A stretch of DNA of 64,000 bases from positions 27,404,001 through 27,468,000 of the forward strand of contig CDPCPM010000033.1 of NCBI GenBank assembly GCA_976551045.1, written 5' to 3'. Position numbers and translations under genes: made by a program. Positions 33,301 to 54,300 of the stretch are shown here, piece after piece. Position 1 is the first letter of the stretch, and each line of letters begins with the position of its first letter. Below the pieces are notes generated by a model, which had not been told where the DNA came from, ran no database searches, and saw only the letters and a program-made list of their open reading frames with translations. This DNA comes from Glaucostegus cemiculus (lineage: Eukaryota).

Positions 33301-36300
33301 CGTTAACAGACTATTTAAACACTTGCATTTCACTGTTTCAGAAATTAATCTCTTGACCATCCTTTATTTTGCCAATGCCACATTAGTGACATATTTTATT
33401 GTTTCACTGATAGTCAAATTTCAGATCAGTTCAAATGTAGTTCGTTAGGGCATGTAAACCTGAGCAGAATTCGTAGATTGAACTGCTATATATTAAATCA
33501 TTTATATAAAAATGGCAAACTAAATTAAGTGCATTTAGGGCATTCAATTTTACAATGATGGGTCTGTTGATGTTTCTGCAAATTATGGATACCTTCATTC
33601 AGATAAATGCAAATAGAGTTAAATCATGATGTAAATTTTTCTTATCCATTGTATAACATACCTCCTTTCATTGTTTTCAGTGAATGTAAAATCATCTTAA
33701 AAAACTAGGGATCGGGGGTAAAATAAATGTTCCATTTTGAAAAGAAGAACTGCAAATTCATTTTAACCCCAGAAAAAAAAATGTGCATATCTATGTACTG
33801 TTTCAAAGATAAGCATCTATTCTATTTGATGGAAGGACCTTGTTTTACAAAAGAAAGTAGTAACTGTTTCTTCTTGAAAAAGTGAAAACATCTTGACATT
33901 AAGAAAATACATTTTTGCAAAATTACTTAAGCATATTAATGTATAAGCTTCTGTTGATAACAGAAGAAATAAGTACTTTTCATTGAAGTTTTTTGATTAT
34001 TCCTTTTCACGTCAAGCAATTTTTAGAAGTATTTTAGAAGACATTGAGGCCTTATGTGCGAGACAAGAATGAGAGAACATTATTGAAACATACAAAATTC
34101 TCTTCGGGCTTGACAGGGTAGATGAAAGGATGATGTTTTTCTTGGCTGGGATATTTGGAAGCAATATTCACAACCTCAAAATAAGGTGTCAGTCATTCAG
34201 GACAAAAATGTGAAGAAATCTCTTCACCTCGATGGTAATTAATCTTTGGATTTCTCAAACCAAGAGGGCTGTGGAGGCTTAGTCACTGAGTATATGATAT
34301 TACTGAACATAGGAAGCCTGAGGGAATGAATGAACTTCTACTGCTTCCATCTTCTAATTCTTTATGTTCTTAGTTCATATTTTTACTGATTTTTAATCCG
34401 GTAGAATACAATGAGTCAAAAGGTCAGCATTATATTTTAAAAACTGCACATCAGCACTTAAGTGATTAAAAATAGCCACAAAAGAATCTGGCTTATTACA
34501 TTGAACCCCAGTCAATTGTCTGATGTAGAATTACCATCCACCATAGTCCCTCAGTTCAGTGGATTTGTGGAGCCAGATCTCTTGAAAATGTAGACAAAAT
34601 ACCTCTCTAATACTTTTAAGATTCCCATGATTATAGAAAAATAAAGTAACAGCACAAAATACATATCAACATACTCTTTCACTGGGCTCAAGTAACTTGT
34701 TCTTCAAGAACCATTGGACTTCAATTCCTTCATAGGACAGTTCACAATCGAAAGAAGCCGAATGTCCAGCAGTTACTGTCACATCCTTAAGGGGCCGGAG
34801 TAAGCTGATCACTCGAGCTTTAGATGAAGCAGACATTATATATCTCTTAGTTTCAGAAGAACTGTTCCTTTAATTTAAAGTTCTCAGGAGAACTCTCTGC
34901 ACTTAAATTTAAAAGCTATAATGCACATTCTATTTCTTCAAAAGCAATATGCCCAGCAGTAAATCTGAGACATTTGAGGCATCATTTTAACTGCTGATCA
35001 TAGTTATTCTCATTCCTACTTGAGGCATTACACCTAAAATTCAGTGGCTTTGACAGCTGCCTGCTTCTGTCCATCAGCTTTACTGGCATTTTCAAAAATT
35101 GCAGGTATGGTATAGAGTTGACATCAATATGCATCCTTCTACTCCCAAAGGTAAAAAAACAAACAAAACATTGATGAAGGGTCTTGACTCAAAAACTGAC
35201 TGTCCATTTTCCTCCATAGATGCTGCCTTACCCACTGAGTTCCTCCAATGCCTTGTGTGTTACTACAAACAAAGCATTGGTTGGTTTTAGGTGGGAAGCT
35301 TACAGCTGTTCAGTAAATTCTTGCCACTTTGTATATTCATTAGACAAAGCCAAATAAAATGTTGGGAAATCTTAATGGCTTATCAAGTGCAGTTTTTCTT
35401 GACTAGTCACAGTATTGGTAACGTAACATTAATTGCATATCTACCTTTGACCCTCAAATGAGCATTGGTTTTGGCGTTAGCAGCCTGGAAATCAACTTCA
35501 CCAGCTTGATCCATTTGCACATTGTACAATATAAGAAAATGTTTTGTGCCTTCCTTTTTGATCTCACAGTCCTGAATTGTAATTAAACAAAAATAAAAGT
35601 TTTAAGTATGGAATAGAGAAAATAGGTAAAATTTAACTGATTTGCTGATGTTAAAACTCACTGCAGAGGGACGCAAGTTCTCTCCTTTCAGCTTCCAATT
35701 GCCATGTACATCATCTTCAGAAATTTCTGTCTCAAAACGAGCAGTTTCTGTTTCTGTGACTTCAACACTGTACAGTGGACGCAATATCTTAATGTGACGT
35801 TCTGAAACAAAATAATAAAAAATGCTATTCTTCAAGAAACATGCCTTAATTTTTTTAAAATACACTTACTTAATTTACTAAAAATGCAAGTTCTGAGTCA
35901 TCTCAGTAAACAACTCTAAACGACATAAAATAAACAGGCTTTACAGCTAATAAGATGGCATGCATTTATTTTTACCTTCAGTGTTTAGTTTGGCTGATGT
36001 GTTGTCAGAGCCACAGTCACAAGAATATTGCCCCTGGTCGCTCTTCATAGCTCGTTTAATGATCAATATTCGCTTCTTCCCATCTGCTTTAATCTGAATA
36101 TTCTTTGAAAGAATCAGTTCTTTTCCATCCTTGAACCATTTAACTGGAGCAGCAGATTTACTGACTTCACACTGGAAGACAACTTCATCTTTTTCTACAG
36201 CTGTGTAATCTTGTAGTTTACTGATAAAATATGGTTCACCCTCTAAGAAAATCAAAAGGTGAGTCAAGTTAGAAATACTTAAGATTAAATGCAGCAATTC

Positions 36301-45300: not shown

Positions 45301-48300
45301 GTATATTCACCCATATCTGAAAGCTGAACATCAATGATATTCAACTTTCTATCCTTGCCATCGGAGGTGAATTTGTATTTTGGACCTTCTCTTATAGTAC
45401 TCCCATCCTTCATCCAAGATGTTAATGCCGTAGATGGGGAAATCAAGCATTCGAATACAGCAGAAGAACCTACTGACTCCGCTTCTTCCAATACAACATC
45501 TTGCAACTCTTTGACAAATTTCAGCTGGACTGCTTTAAGCTGGAACCCTGCAAATGGTGGTTCCTCTGAAGGTGGCCTCCCTCCACCTGGTTTAAGTGGC
45601 TTCTTGTCTCCGTCTCCAGGTGATGGTGTCTTTCTTGCTAAAATTCAGAGTTGAACATAAATAGATTGTATTTTATTGGTTTTATTGCATGCTTCTGAAG
45701 AGGATTTTATGTGAACCAAATATTTAGATGCCATGTGTCATTTTCAGTTGATAATATTCGACGATACATATGTAGAGCAATGAAATTGACGACCCAAGAA
45801 GAAACCAAACTCTGAAAATTTGGTTTTGGTCCTTCCCTAAGATAAATTGATGCATGGAAGCCCACCATTCAAAGTCCATGCATTCCTTCATGCGATAATG
45901 ATTGCAGACGGCAAGATTTGCACCACATTCAGCCATTATAATTTCAGCTTGAATAGATTTGCAATCTTAGTCTTCAGATATAACCAAGTAATTTTGAGCA
46001 AAACAATTCTGTACAGCCCAAAACATTGCATTTTGCACAGAAACAGAGGAAGACACATGCATTAAAGTATCAAATCTAATATTGTGATCACAATCTAATT
46101 ATGTACATGGAACATAGTAGGAATTTCTTCTGCTCACTTTTAGAGCATGCCTTCCCTAGCAACATTAATTGCAGAAAATATACAGCAGCAGTGTACAAAT
46201 AGATCACTCATGCTCAAGTAAGTTAGGTTAATTGAACTCCACATGTTGCTTTATGAAGCTGCAGGCATGTAAAGGACAGCAGTACATGCAAAATTAAACA
46301 ACAGATTGTTATCCAGTATGTGCAGCCATTTTGTAACTGGAAGGCCACACAAATTGATTTGACATTACATTTTAAAATAACTGAAGTGTAGTAGAGCATT
46401 TAATTTTGTTTGCTCTGATGAGCATGGTATTTAAATAGGATGCTTTAGAAAGCAATATAATTTATTCATGTAAACAGATGTAGTACACTGAAAAAGTATT
46501 GCATACTGTATGGGTGCATTTTATGTTCCTTGGTGCTTGAGGAACAAGTATATATGTTAACAATCAAGCATGGATTCTTACTGCAATTATGTGCATGATA
46601 GCCCTTCTCACCTCTTAATAAACCTCTACCTTTGCCGGCTTCATCAGCTGGTGCCTTAGCATCTGCAGTGAGATAGTAACATAATCATCAGCACATCATT
46701 ACTATCCTGTTAATCAATAAATGTTATAAAGTTTCTGTAACAACCAGTGGGAAAAAATGATGAGGCCATAAAATGTAATTTAAATGAAAAAATATATTTA
46801 TGTATCATACATAATATACATTATACATATTATGTATGAAAGTATGTGCAACACAAAAATAATGAAAAATGGTACTTTAATTGCTTTGATATACTAAACA
46901 AAAGGTTTATTCATGCGACCAAAGGAAAATTAACATGAAAAAAGATGATTTAGGTTAGAATGAGTAAAATATATAACCATACAATTTGAATGGTTTATAG
47001 AAGTCCTTGCCTTATGAAATATAATGAAAAATGATTTTAATTCATTCATAGTTCTGTTAATAGCAACATTAAAGCAATTTAAGACAATTTTTCTTTGGAA
47101 GTCATTGGACTACATGGACCAAACACAAGCAACAAACATGAATTTTAGACTTCACACTGTTGACGACTACAATACTTCATGCACACAAATACAACTTGCA
47201 TTGCCAGGTGAGACAAATACATTTAACAAAGATGAACACATACAACATCAAGGAACATTGATCCATTTTCCAAAGCACATGATATGAACAATCAGTTTGG
47301 CAGATGTGCAGCAGTCCTCTCACCTCGTCGTTTGAAAGGCTTTGAAGGAGTTTCAACTGCACCTTCATACAGTTCGTCATCATCTTCACACTCCCAATCA
47401 ACCGATGAGCCACCTTCCTCTTCAGTTAGTTCCGATTCCCAATCTTCTTTGTCCCGTAATTCTTCTATTGATATTTCTTCTGATTCTACTTCATAGTCTT
47501 CTGAAGATGAAACTATTTCAGAAGGAACTTTCTTCATGTGCACCATTTCCTGCTCTTTTTCTGCTACACTCTCTTTGTCAGCTTTAAGGTGTGCAACGTC
47601 CTTTTGATCTTCCATAACAGGAATTTTTTCCTTCTCAGCTTTATGATGTACTGTATCAGTCAAATCTCTGGGAGTCAGTACTTTCTTTATTGGTATTTTC
47701 TGTAGCTTTTCTTCCACAGCAATACCTTTTGAAGAGACCTTCTTCAACTCTATATGACCTTTTTCTGTTTCTGACACTGGGCCTTTTCCTTTTCCAGTTT
47801 TAAGGTGTGGAACATCAGGTAAATCTCTTGGGGTCAGTACTTTCTTCACAGGTATTTTCTGTAGCTTTTCTTCTACCACTATATCTTTTGATGGGACTTT
47901 CTTCAACTCCAAATGATCCTTTTGTTCCTCCTGTTCCTGTAAAACTGTGGATTTCTTTTTGTCAATTTTTGTACCTGCAATTACTTTTTCTTCTTCAGAA
48001 ACTGCCATAAGTTTTTCAGACAGTTTGTCAATCTTTTGTGGTTCTTTTTCACCTAATGCTTTTCCTTTTAAAGGAATCTTTTTCGGGAGGACCATTTCTT
48101 GTTCTTCTTTTGGAACAGGAACTTTCCCTTTACTAATTTTTAAAGGAATTTCATCCTTTTTTTCTTTAGAGGGAACCATTTTTTTTTCAGGTAATACCTT
48201 AGGAACATCAATCTCCCCTGTAGTGAATTCAGGAATTCTTTTTGATGGAGTTGTTTCTGAAACAATCTCCCTGGGTACTGCCTCAATTGGAAAAACTTCT

Positions 48301-51300
48301 ATACCTTTGGATTTTTCTTCTTCAGAAGATGGTTCACTTCTTGGTTTGTGAATAATTTTGGGAAGGTCAATTTTTGTGAGATAAGGATGTTCTGTTTTCT
48401 CCCCAACAGGCTGAGGAAGTGTACTACTTTTTCTCAATATCACATGCTTTTCTTCTTCTTCCTGTTCTACAGGTAATTTATCAGACTTTGTCAATGGTAA
48501 GATGTTCTCCTCCGCCACACCAGGAACTTTAGCCTGCTTTATTGATTTTATTTCCCTATCACCTATCTTCATAGGAACTGCTTTTGATTTGGTTACAGAC
48601 ACAGGCTTCCCCTTACTTTTGTCAGCTTTAGGAACATCATCAACCTTTTCCAGTGTTATTTGCTTCTCTATAACTTTTTCATCAATGTGTATTTCAGTAA
48701 GTTTCTTTGACGCACTGTGTTTTTCTTTTAAAGCTTCTTTTTTAGGAATTATCTCAAACTTTTTGAATTGCACTTTATCTGCTTCTTCCTCTTGTTTGGG
48801 GATGTAATCGAGTTTCTTTAGTGCAACTGGCTCTTTATCCACTTCCTTGTGTGGTACCCTACTATCTATTTTTGGTAATATTTTGCATGTTTCATCCTTT
48901 TCAAGGGAGATTTTCTCAGTATCTACTTTAGGAATCTCATCAACCAACTGTAAAACTATATCTCTTTTTGTTTCTATCTCTTTTAACATTATACCTGGTT
49001 TCTTTGGCAATGTATAATATTCATCAGTTTCAATTTCTTTAGGGCTTTCAGTAGATTTCCTGAGTTTTAACCCTATTTCTTTGTCATCTTCTTTATGGTA
49101 TCTCGTTTCTTCATCTTTCACTTTCTCAGGAACCTTACTACGTTTCTTCAATATTGAAATTTCTCTATCTTCTATTTCTTTTGGGATTTGGACTGTAGGT
49201 TTTAGTTTCAAAGATGACTTGGATTGTTCTGCAGCTATAAAGGTTTCATATTCAATTTAGTGACAAATCAACAAAGACTTTTGCAATTCCCCTAAAAGAA
49301 CAGTCTAACATCAAAACAAAACAAGTTATAGTCTCCAAACCACATTGGTGTTCACCAAATAAAAGCACACAGTGAAACTTTTCCATAGTCAACATAATTT
49401 CAAAATAAACACATTAACAGAAAGAATCACAAGACAAGTTACATAACTTGTAACTATTTAAGTAGACTGAAGAGACAAATTGATACAACTAGAACACAAC
49501 ACTTAGGATCCAGTGGAGATCTATAAATTTAAATTTAGCACACAAATCTGAACAGAGAATGTACATTAATATATTATAGAGTTAAATATTTTAAAATTTA
49601 AGCACAATAGGATTTGAGAAATTGTACCTTTAACAGGTTTCTTGACAGGCCCTGGTGTAGTGATGGGAAGTGTAGTAATAGGCACTTCTTCAGCTTCTGG
49701 CTCTTTGGAAATAACACCAAAAGTTGTATTACCATTAAAATTGAATCTTAAAATACAATACTATATGGAGATGTGTTAACAATAATATTTAAAACATTTT
49801 TACACTTAATCCAATTGGCTCAGTTACTAGAGTTTTGACAGAATTATTTTGCACTTCCCCTCCATCATTCCATGATTAGGAAATTAAACATATTGTATGG
49901 TAGGTCAATTAAAAAAGAAAATATCCTTGATCAATTGGAGTACTTATTTATTTTCTGCCCTGGAGAAAGAATAACTTTCATTGAGGCCAGACAGCACAAA
50001 TAAAAAAAAAATTGGAAAAGTAAATCAAATCAAAGTCAATAGCTTATTAAACATCTCCAATAACTAACAACCCTAAATTTTCAAAGTAGTAATCAAATAG
50101 ATTAGGGATTGAATTTCAATTTCAAAGCTATTATATAACATTTCCATTTATTATAAAATTTAATTACTAATTAGACTGATGGTAAAATGAAAATGAGGTA
50201 CAGTTGAGTTAATGAATAAAATAAAATGAAAAGCAAGCATCGTTAACTCAGCAATGAAATGACAAAATGTGATGAAATGTAGGAAGCTGCATGGATTTTG
50301 CACCAGTGACACAAGATGATGAGTGACACTCATTTGTGTACCTTCCTCCGATTCCAAATCTTGTTTCACTGGAGCAGTGACTAGATCACCTTTAGGTTCA
50401 ATCTTCTCAGCAACTGTAGTAACTTCAAAAAATATTTTTGTTCAAATGTTTAGTTTTTGCACAAATGATCTAAATCACTGGCAATATTAACTAGAAGTAA
50501 CTGGACATGTCTAATACTCAGTTATTAACAATGTTATAAAAGTATTTTTGTTGCTTTTGGAACATTGTTAATAAAGGTCATTTGAATGGCCTTTTCTTAA
50601 TTTTCCTTTAAAGATTTAATAAGCAACATTTGAGTGTTAATTATTTATATATTTTAAATATCCATACACAGGTAAAGATAATGGTTAAAGTAATGGCAAA
50701 GATATAACATCAAAAATTGGGCACATGAAAAATCATCCAAAAGATTACATCAATGTTCAATCTGATCTTAGTTGGGCAAGAAATAAGAAGCTTTCTGTAC
50801 AGTCTTAATTCCTATACAATCTTATCTAATCTCCTACCTTGGCCTATGTAAGCCAATGTTTAAATTATACTCTGGTTGCTGGTAGTATAAACTTCTATTT
50901 AGATAGGATGGGCTTTGTGAAATATTCCAAAAATATTCCAAAAATTTGTAAACTTTTGTACTCCATAACAAATGTCAATAACATGATGCAAACCAAGACA
51001 AGAAAGAAGAGAACTAGTGTCACTAGAAAACACCTGAAATTTTTTGTTAACATTGGACATAAAAATATTATAACAAGCAGGGTCTTGTAAAGAACCTTCA
51101 TTTTCATTGATTGTGAGATGTAGCAGTTACTTTTAGACAGGATCTTCTAATAAATTAATTCTATACCTTTTTGTGTAGTAAGTTGCATCTTTATTGGAGG
51201 TGTAACTTCAACAAGTTTGTCATGTGCAATCTTCTTATCAGCATCAATAATTCTGCTGGGTAATATTTTCTTGTCAACTTCAACAACTTCTTCATGTAAA

Positions 51301-54300
51301 ATTTTCACAGTCGGCTCAACAACTTCATCATATAAAATTATCTCATCAGCTTCAAGAGCTTCATATAGAAGCTCCTCATCAGTTTCAACTATTTCTTCAG
51401 GTGAAGTTATCTTTTCCATCTGAACAGTTTCTTCAAGTAATAACAACTCATCAGGCTCTGCACTTTCTTCATGTAAAATGGATTCATCAACTTTGACAGT
51501 TTCTTCAGTTAAAATGTTCACATCAGTCTCAACAACCTCTGTGGTTAAAATAGTGTCATCAACCTGATCAGTTCCTTCGTATGGAATCCCCTCATCAGAC
51601 TCAATAATCTCTTCAGCATAAATTATTTTTTCAACTTCTGCAGTTTCTTCATGTAAATCCTTCTTGAAAGCTTCAGAGAGTTTGAAGAAAATGTTTCATA
51701 ATTTTAGTTCAAAGTTTTAATAAAAGTTAAGATGAAAAAAGTATGAAGCAAACAAACCTTACCACACAAAATGAAGCAATATTTTTACAAAAATTGTTAC
51801 AAATATCAAGACACAAAAATAGACAAAACAGTCACAAGATAAGATGAACAAGAAGACAATAAGAAAGCAAAAAACAGAGAAGATCATGATGTAAAAAGGT
51901 TACACAACATGTAAATGGAACACACTGGTTAATGCATGAAGTCCATGGCACATTGAAGTTATCAACAGTAATACATGTGGTAAGATAATGTAGACGAAGG
52001 AACTGTTACTTCAGTACCTTTTACTGTAATAACCTTGGTTTCTGCAAAGGTGATTGGAGCAACCTTTTCAGGCATGTGTTTTCTGGCAACTTCAGACACT
52101 TTAAAGACATTATTAGAACTGTTGTAAGCTACATTGAAGAACTTTCTTTTAACAGCAAAACACAACAGTAAAAAATATGCCTTCTGAAATTATATAGGAG
52201 TCACAAAGCCGAAAGAGGCATTTGGCCCAATACCGCTATTCTGATCCTTATACCATACACAAGTCTCTTCCTTCTCTAATTCATCTAATTCCATCTGCAT
52301 ATATATCAATTCCTTTCTCCCTTTACATAAATATCCATCTAAAATACAACATGATTTGTTTCAACCTCTCAATTCAGTAGCAAGTTATGTGTTATGTGAC
52401 TAAAGATTTTTCTCTTTTGAATATTTAGTGGATTCATTTGTGACTATCTCATATTTGTATCCTATAGGTTTCAATTCTCCTACTACTGTAAATATATTCT
52501 CTACGACAATCTTATCAAACCTTTAGAAATATCATAAATTTTAATTAGGATTACCCATCATTTTTCTCTTCTATAAAGTCCTTCCCAACAGTTGGAACCT
52601 CTCAGTTCTATTTTCATCCTCCTAAACATTTTTTGAAACTTTGGTACCTCCTTTTACAGTAGAATTATGCAATGTATTCCAAAGTTGCAGTCTACCAAAG
52701 TTTTTATATAAGTTTATCAACACCTATCAGAGTTTCAACTTAATTCCACTGAAATAAAAAAATTGTGTTTGTTTGCATTTTTGTGGCAATGTTCTGCATA
52801 CCTAAATAACTGAACCATGTACCACCAACAATAAGTAATTATTTCTCTCACAAGTAGCTACATATTTTGTGTGCTAACAGAGAGATTATCTTGGATAATT
52901 AACATAAACAGTTGGATTTGATCAAAAACTGAATTGACTGTAATATAGTGACTATTTCTTAGTAAAAAATGTACTTGGTAGATGTCCACACTGATTACAG
53001 TTTGATGCTGAGCTGAGTTTCAGGCACATATCTTCTCAATTATAAATCAGATTAACTCAAACCACAAAACACTGCCAGACTCCAGCCCAATGTTACACAA
53101 ACTCTTGTGTATATCTGTACCACCTTCAGACTCATCTATTCTAAGGCTGTCATTTTTGTCCTCCCATCTTACATCCTCTACCTTGGATAATTGTGCTGCA
53201 TGTTTTCTGCTCATACAAAGCCTTGTGTAACCAGCATTTCTTTCCCTGTTGATTTACATTAATTGGACATTCCAATGTTTTTAACTTAAAATCTAAGCTG
53301 TTGAATTTCTTCAAAGCTTCATCAGTTCTTTACTATAACATTGATACAAATTTTACTTATTCACACAATGAGCAACTTTCCATTACAAATAAAGCCATGG
53401 CTCATTGAATAGTCAGAGAAAATTCACCATATACAGTATATTCCTCAAAACGCCATAACCAATCTTTCTAATTCACTTCAGCTACATATTCTCCCAACTG
53501 AAGAATAACTTTTTCTTGCATGATTCCTTCAGTCGTCTACAGCCTACCCTTGGGAATTGACCCCATAAGTTCTCAAACTCCACCTCTTCAAATCACTTTT
53601 TCCAACCATCTTTGCTCATTACTTCCCTTTATGGGTCAGTGTCTATACTTAATCCAATATGAAATGTGGTTTAGGACATCTCCTATTTTAAATCTGTTTA
53701 TAAATGTATGTTACTGCTCAAACCTACACATTAAATTCATTCAATGTTTGCACATATATTTACAATGCATGAAGATATTTTTGAAACACAACACTATAAT
53801 AGCAATAGACAGGGTAAGACATAAAGTACATAACTATAACAGATAAAGTCAAACAAATAAACCAGCATAACACTGGTACTACTAAAAGAATTAGAAGAAT
53901 ATTAATCCAAAGCTATGAAGTTCCCAGGTAGATCATGAAGAGGATTTCTCTCTACAAGAGGTAAGTTGTTACCTTTACTTTAACTGTCTCTCAATCCAAG
54001 TTTTGGCAGAAATACGAGGTAAAAATTTTCCCAGGTTAATAGTTAATCTAATTCACACCAGCCTTTGTCGACAGAATAAGGTAGTTGTAACTTGATGTCC
54101 ATATAAAAATGTTGCAGATATGGTCATATCATCTTCAATCACTAAAGAATATCAGGCAGAAAGTCATTCTCCACTGATTGTGCTAAAGGGAGAATGTAGT
54201 AGAGGTTGCTCATTTAACTGCTTCTCCAAATTTGGTTCCACTGAAGTCAATGGATATGAATTTCATAATTGAAGTACAATGCACACCTGGATGAATTTCT

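Follow-up and report, generated by a model that had tools for sequence, protein, structure and literature searches.

A candidate Cronos start codon in the titin gene of a cartilaginous fish

Introduction

Is the internal start that gives rise to the short titin isoform Cronos confined to bony vertebrates, or did the ancestor of all jawed vertebrates already have it? In zebrafish, mouse and human, 5′ RACE locates the transcription start within a single titin intron, according to the excerpted text of Zou 2015 (PMC4720518), from which we take all statements ascribed to that paper. The zebrafish start site lies 110 nt upstream of exon e116 and the initiator methionine 7 amino acids upstream of it; in mouse and human, the start sites lie 257 and 256 nt upstream of exons e223 and e240, respectively, with the methionine 12 amino acids upstream (PMC4720518). 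Zebrafish Cronos supports early sarcomere assembly (PMC4720518), and the isoform has been put forward as the reason that cardiomyopathy is worse when titin is truncated downstream of the Cronos intron (PMC4720518 and excerpts of PMC5068190). Its presence in zebrafish, mouse and human dates Cronos to the bony-vertebrate ancestor. Within the literature searched, which lay outside most subscription journals, we found no publication that connects Cronos with cartilaginous fish or with lamprey, and the word is absent from the main text, as far as it was available, of the 2025 paper on elephant-shark connectin (PMC12241362).

An earlier note on a 64,000-nt stretch of Glaucostegus cemiculus DNA, hereafter the window, had proposed a Cronos-like promoter and an in-frame start codon in one titin intron. 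Here, we place this intron relative to the known Cronos exons, compare its start codon with that of other vertebrates, and weigh the evidence for production of the isoform in this lineage.

Results

The window covers part of the titin gene, on the minus strand, an orientation that the earlier note had not given. It includes exons of the PEVK region, 22 Ig domains from the distal I-band and the beginning of the A-band. The exon at 37642-37503 matches the solved I27/I91 structure; taking it as I91 and counting on, exon 34817-34675 opens I96 (Table 1). This I96 exon has a single full-length match in the whole genome (2.85 Gb), and the frame that runs from it stays open as far as the window extends, across about 52 predicted exons of compatible phase. 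Its GHSA signature is common to the window and Callorhinchus milii only (2 of 131 proteins), whereas 122 of the 131 carry GETA. A search among proteins representative at 50% returned no further ORF of the GHSA, or chondrichthyan, type. The acetylcholinesterase of the same genome also points to a cartilaginous fish, scoring 951-987 bits against the Torpedo group of PDB chains and about 680 against the mammalian group. A search with the I105 region gave no named cartilaginous fish and did not help to place the genome. We also searched the PDB with the MSASSK-I96 peptide; the matches were paralogous Ig domains only and were discarded.

Several other features of the locus deserve mention. The PEVK region ends with an open frame of 654 codons (47295-49256, minus strand), probably one unusually large PEVK exon; 49% of its residues are P, E, V or K, part of it is repeated internally, and its tail is acidic. 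A second, acidic (E/D-rich) frame of 182 codons (51150-51695, minus strand) is probably a PEVK exon of the poly-E type. A GC-AG intron follows the I92 exon, with the donor AAG/GCAAGT at 36707-36702 (minus strand), and another GC donor is predicted after exon 25230-25106.

Table 1. Features of the putative Cronos intron and its flanking exons in the window.
Feature	Position	Strand	Remarks
Intron, 627 nt, GT..AG; expected by orthology to contain an internal promoter and 5′ UTR	34818..35444	-	From its boundaries and Zou 2015 (PMC4720518, excerpt)
Candidate Cronos initiator ATG, A at -3, T at +4	34834..34836	-	19 nt before the I96 exon
Putative dual-use stretch of 19 nt: 3′ splice site of full-length titin, MSASSK codons and first base of Ala	34818..34836	-	
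uORF, 14 codons, out of frame; nearest upstream ATG (-111)	34884..34928	-	Ends before the candidate Cronos ATG
143-bp exon, N-half of I96	34675..34817	-	Orthologue of zebrafish ttna e116, mouse e223, human e240
Upstream exon, C-half of I95 (zebrafish e115)	35445..35571	-	3′ end AAAG, as in the intron
CAGCTG E-box, candidate	35054..35059	.	242 nt upstream of the I96 exon
CAGCTG E-box, candidate	35303..35308	.	491 nt upstream of the I96 exon
MEF2-like A/T 10-mer, TTAAATTTAA	34903..34912	.	Chance level
Dispersed repeat fragment	35173..35267	.	Inserted between the two E-boxes; at least 49 further genome matches

The earlier note had placed the start of Cronos in the intron before this same 143-bp exon, and had named a different location as a possible refutation. 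We therefore compared the window with published primers and guide RNAs, taken from excerpts of Zou 2015 (PMC4720518) and of Kim 2024 (after Zaunbrecher 2019, whose work on human Cronos we know through excerpts of PMC7912658 and PMC11827849). The guide against e116 has its best match at 34749 (16 of 20 positions; the runner-up reaches 13) and that against e114 at 35785 (17/20). Matches of the e115 guide at 35571 (15/20) and of primer dr_e115_f at 35475 (19/27) are tied three and two ways, respectively, and the expected site of the e113 guide is only its second best (14/20). Translated, the primers of Zou 2015 yield QLRVKAR across the e115/e116 junction, PRVIGL in mouse e223 and EGIPVE in e116, all of which match the I96 exon or its junction, and the human Cronos reverse primer (PMC11827849, excerpt) reads CELSYE, with its best match at 34747 within the I96 exon. 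By DNA match or translated peptide, the published primers are assigned to the window exons 35801, 35571 and 34817. When the zebrafish and human Cronos primers themselves were matched as DNA without gaps, the intron was not found, and only their translations are informative: that of the zebrafish primer is MSSPES, that of the human primer AKLFLP. With the translated primers falling in the I96 exon and the exon before it, the location given in the earlier note holds and the test against a different intron returns the same one. By sequence comparison, the window intron is the Cronos intron.

The boundaries of the intron are corroborated by a 44-kb spliced titin contig of a relative (run X8), which skips exactly these 627 nt (joint 34817/35445). 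Of 19 ATGs in the intron, only that at 34836 leads in an open frame into the I96 exon. As the earlier note had read it, this ATG has an A at -3 and encodes MSASSK followed by ARVISLLRPLK. The note had also called the acceptor atypical for its AAG and poor in pyrimidines. Among the 66 titin introns of the window that served as controls (one spurious exon removed, one acceptor corrected by eye and the first acceptor omitted), AAAG occurs once and an A at acceptor position -3 in 5, with C or T in the other 61, which bears out the first point. The second fails, since the tract has pyrimidines at 11 of 17 positions, where the median is 12, and by its score the acceptor is only the 10th lowest of 66.

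An ATG of this kind is not rare in itself. An open in-frame ATG lies within 7 codons of the acceptor in 11 of the 65 other titin introns, and in 4 of the 65 it also has a purine at -3. Judged on the window alone, the start codon would be a weak finding, and because such ATGs are frequent in control introns, the case rests on conservation. Concerning the uORF that precedes the candidate start, a transcript beginning 3′ of 34928 would have a 5′ UTR free of upstream ATGs.

With the window peptide, we collected 376 proteins, 141 of which carry the I96 exon, their ORFs being called mostly on unspliced contigs. In the 125 proteins of the orthologue type, which enter the exon as ARV, the nearest methionine lies 7 residues upstream in 101 and 12 residues upstream in 20; one protein each has it at 11, 6 and 5, and one spliced C. 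milii model has none. The second residue is Ser in 119 of 124 extensions. The 7-residue class reads MSSP[EQ]SK and the 12-residue class, for example, MSNAKLFLSSRK; both fit the published distances and the translated Cronos primers. Two proteins with a tetrapod-like exon, P0305 and P0307, have extensions of 5-6 residues ending in Gln (MSSYQ and MSSPYQ) and form a third length class. Most 'teleost' and 'mammal' labels of the entries are our inference from primer likeness.

In 123 of the 124 extensions encoded by the intron, the last residue is K, Q or E (K in 115), which implies an A at acceptor position -3, seen as DNA in the window, a teleost-like locus (L005, below) and the zebrafish primer only. 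Because the intron is in phase 1, the A of the AG completes the codon that precedes Ala. Ser, Pro, Phe and Leu account for 71% of residues across the distinct extensions, since a pyrimidine-rich splice tract yields such codons.

The protein set is biased, in that gene callers begin at Met and most entries are closely related, so that the 37 distinct peptides are not independent. Five ARV-type ORFs called from further upstream nevertheless retain a proximal methionine at 6-7 residues, one of which, P0004, is a peptide of the 12-residue class with a second Met. In ttn.1-like paralogues, by comparison, the position of the methionine is scattered from 5 to 24 (14 proteins), as is to be expected where its placement is relaxed, and two further proteins begin inside the exon. 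Set against the two sharp modes of the ARV-type sequences, this scatter speaks against a pure bias of gene callers.

Does the methionine extend to other cartilaginous fish? Its lack of conservation there had been put forward as a possible refutation. The C. milii protein UniRef100_A0A4W3IPV7, a 98-aa automatic model, starts with MFSPTSKARV, a matching Met that removes this objection at the level of the protein model and indicates an ATG in a second chondrichthyan lineage. Like the window sequence, the model covers I96, and it is identical to two window exons at 36 of 47 and 35 of 41 residues. It is a prediction named 'Immunoglobulin domain-containing protein' and not recognised as Cronos. The chondrichthyan evidence for the ATG consists of the window genome and this one model. 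The window extension is one codon shorter than those of C. milii and the teleosts.

A scan of metagenomes yielded 2 loci from 64 candidates, both teleost-like. In the first, L005, an ATG at -22 is followed by an AAAG acceptor; its last 23 nt align with the last 20 of the window intron across a one-codon gap, and only 2 of 200 shuffles scored as well. On this combined comparison of peptides and intron ends, the ATG at 34836 is very probably the orthologue of the Cronos start.

The second locus, L006, belongs to a ttn.1-like teleost paralogue. Here (L006:38-110), an in-frame ATG lies 7 codons before the exon and reads MSSTSPP, then ARSI, next to an ordinary CCCAG acceptor. Among the ttn.1-like proteins, 11 of 14 have a Met within 11 residues, a possible second Cronos; in the literature searched, as far as excerpted, Cronos has been described for ttn.2 only.

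The promoter is harder to trace than the start codon. Upstream of the ATG, the earlier note had reported myogenic CAGCTG E-boxes and a MEF2-like site, and their coordinates are correct. Their significance was assessed with composition-preserving shuffles, eight motifs being tested. It is borderline for the E-boxes (P=0.023 for CAGCTG and 0.08 for CASCTG, 1000 shuffles) and disappears for the MEF2-like site (P=0.15, with 15 such sites in other introns). Two CAGCTG boxes compare with 0.13 expected from the other introns, an expectation unmatched in composition, as the intron has a G+C content of 0.36 against a mean of 0.28. GATA, CCAAT, TEAD, CArG and TATA motifs are not enriched in the intron. 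A repeat fragment, which we take to resemble the tail of an elasmobranch SINE or LINE, separates the two E-boxes, which lowers the chance that the distal box belonged to an ancient arrangement of the promoter. This repeat (35173-35267) is abundant both in the genome and in RNA runs, with thousands of reads.

The last 627 bases of L005 contain neither CAGCTG nor a strict MEF2 site, and the body of the window intron does not align with L005 (9 of 200 forward shuffles as good, at a non-matching position, and 109 of 200 in reverse). We also considered the human upstream primer, which aligns at -254, near the human start distance; it was rejected because 10 of 90 control tiles reached an equal score. 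Since the E-boxes, the MEF2-like site and the pyrimidine tract add little, the internal promoter is proposed by orthology. In the excerpts of PMC4720518, PMC7478974, PMC12854356, PMC13031707, PMC5068190, PMC11827849 and PMC7912658 available to us, no mapped Cronos promoter elements were found. L005 itself has a cluster of CCAAT, loose MEF2-like and GATA motifs (L005:1185-1260), some 270-335 nt before the Cronos exon of the teleost. It lies in a zone richer in G+C and is a candidate teleost promoter unmatched in the window.

From the 22 sequencing runs listed, four were examined (X8, X16, X17 and X18). In the raw RNA runs X17 and X18, of which about 18% and 24% were read, 2341 and 3136 reads were recovered, nearly all on the repeat. 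Titin exons reach a depth of at most 2.5 in X17, where 3 reads cross one upstream splice joint; neither run has pile-ups of read starts, and both are uninformative. The spliced contig of X8 represents the full-length titin splice only. Run X16 contains a 201-nt contig of depth 3 (34696-34891) that crosses the intron-exon border and ends 21 nt short of the I96 exon donor, with 6 differing letters of which 1 is shown; the run holds no other titin exon. This contig would fit a 5′ piece of Cronos. Because the run was picked through this very stretch and may be DNA, and because so few of the differing letters are shown, we use the contig neither for expression nor for conservation of the ATG.

Discussion

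Taken together, the findings make it likely that the window contains the cartilaginous-fish orthologue of the Cronos start and that this lineage produces the isoform. By orthology, transcripts would start about 50-260 nt upstream of the I96 exon, from a promoter within the 627-nt intron that acts in developing striated muscle. The tail of the intron would serve as 5′ UTR, joined to the I96 exon as a composite first exon, and scanning ribosomes would reach the ATG at 34836 and read MSASSK into ARV without splicing. The predicted product is titin from I96 onwards, comprising ten distal I-band Ig domains (I96-I105), the A-band and presumably the M-line. It would have neither the Z-disc anchor nor the PEVK spring. 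Proteins that begin with Met-Ser have the Met removed and are then N-acetylated.

Full-length titin would use the same 19 nt as its 3′ splice site. Since the upstream exon likewise ends in AAAG, spliced titin and Cronos would both enter I96 as Lys-Ala-Arg-Val. We infer that selection keeps this Lys at the expense of a weaker acceptor.

Compared with known systems, the window most closely resembles zebrafish ttna/ttn.2 Cronos (PMC4720518, excerpt). Both use the same intron and exon, both have an in-frame Met in the last codons of the intron and an MS..SK peptide, and both have an AAAG acceptor, that of zebrafish being read by eye from the probe primer. They differ in the length of the extension (7 residues in zebrafish, 6 in the window); the zebrafish start site is mapped, whereas start site, expression and protein are predicted for the window. 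Mouse and human TTN Cronos share the exon, the Lys before ARV and the Ser in second position with the window, and differ in their longer extension of 12 residues and in a start site that lies about 256 nt upstream.

Could the ATG be there and Cronos not? The ATG and AAAG may have been inherited as an ancestral relic, through slow evolution or as a splice signal, with the promoter silent or lost and no Cronos protein made. The intron body and its motifs, in which no promoter sequence is conserved with teleost L005, would agree with such a loss, as would the insertion of a repeat; slow evolution is stated for C. milii among chondrichthyans (PMC12241362, excerpt), and the runs examined, which had almost no titin, gave no RNA support for Cronos. 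A relic is nevertheless difficult to reconcile with the extension itself, which reads MSASSK here and MFSPTSK in C. milii, yet has kept both the frame and the ATG. Moreover, splicing requires neither the rare A at -3 nor a length change by a whole codon. We regard this explanation as rather unlikely.

Still less can be said for an ATG that arose by chance in the AT-rich end of an intron and has no relation to Cronos. The control introns demonstrate how readily such ATGs occur, including those with a purine at -3; a chance ATG would, however, have to sit in exactly the known Cronos intron, show the M-S..S-K pattern of the Cronos peptide family, and lie in an intron end that aligns with that of L005 as few shuffles do. 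This makes coincidence very improbable. A short isoform could, alternatively, start further upstream by intron retention or an alternative first exon, leaving the intron without a promoter of its own. No start site was seen within this intron in the runs examined, and the X16 contig does span the border between intron and exon. Against this stands the 5′ RACE of zebrafish, mouse and human, which puts the start inside the intron (PMC4720518, excerpt), and a retained intron would bring along 18 upstream ATGs. An upstream start has, in our estimation, hardly any probability. A Cronos orthologue with its start in this intron is the reading we prefer.

The conserved start suggests that Cronos is as old as the jawed vertebrates. 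If both chondrichthyan lineages possess it, the origin of Cronos would move from the bony-vertebrate to the jawed-vertebrate ancestor, and the isoform would appear as a core part of sarcomere assembly. This step back in time is modest and may come as little surprise to titin specialists. The window intron could also serve as an outgroup in finding the promoter elements of Cronos.

A bolder proposal, which we advance tentatively and consider doubtful as a whole, is that all jawed vertebrates make Cronos from a stretch of 19-37 nt that is acceptor and code at once, that a weak xAAG has been kept in it for about 450 My for the sake of Lys-Ala-Arg-Val, and that zebrafish may make a second Cronos from ttn.1. 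Were such a ttn.1-like Cronos to exist in zebrafish, it would affect how rescues of ttn.2 truncations are read.
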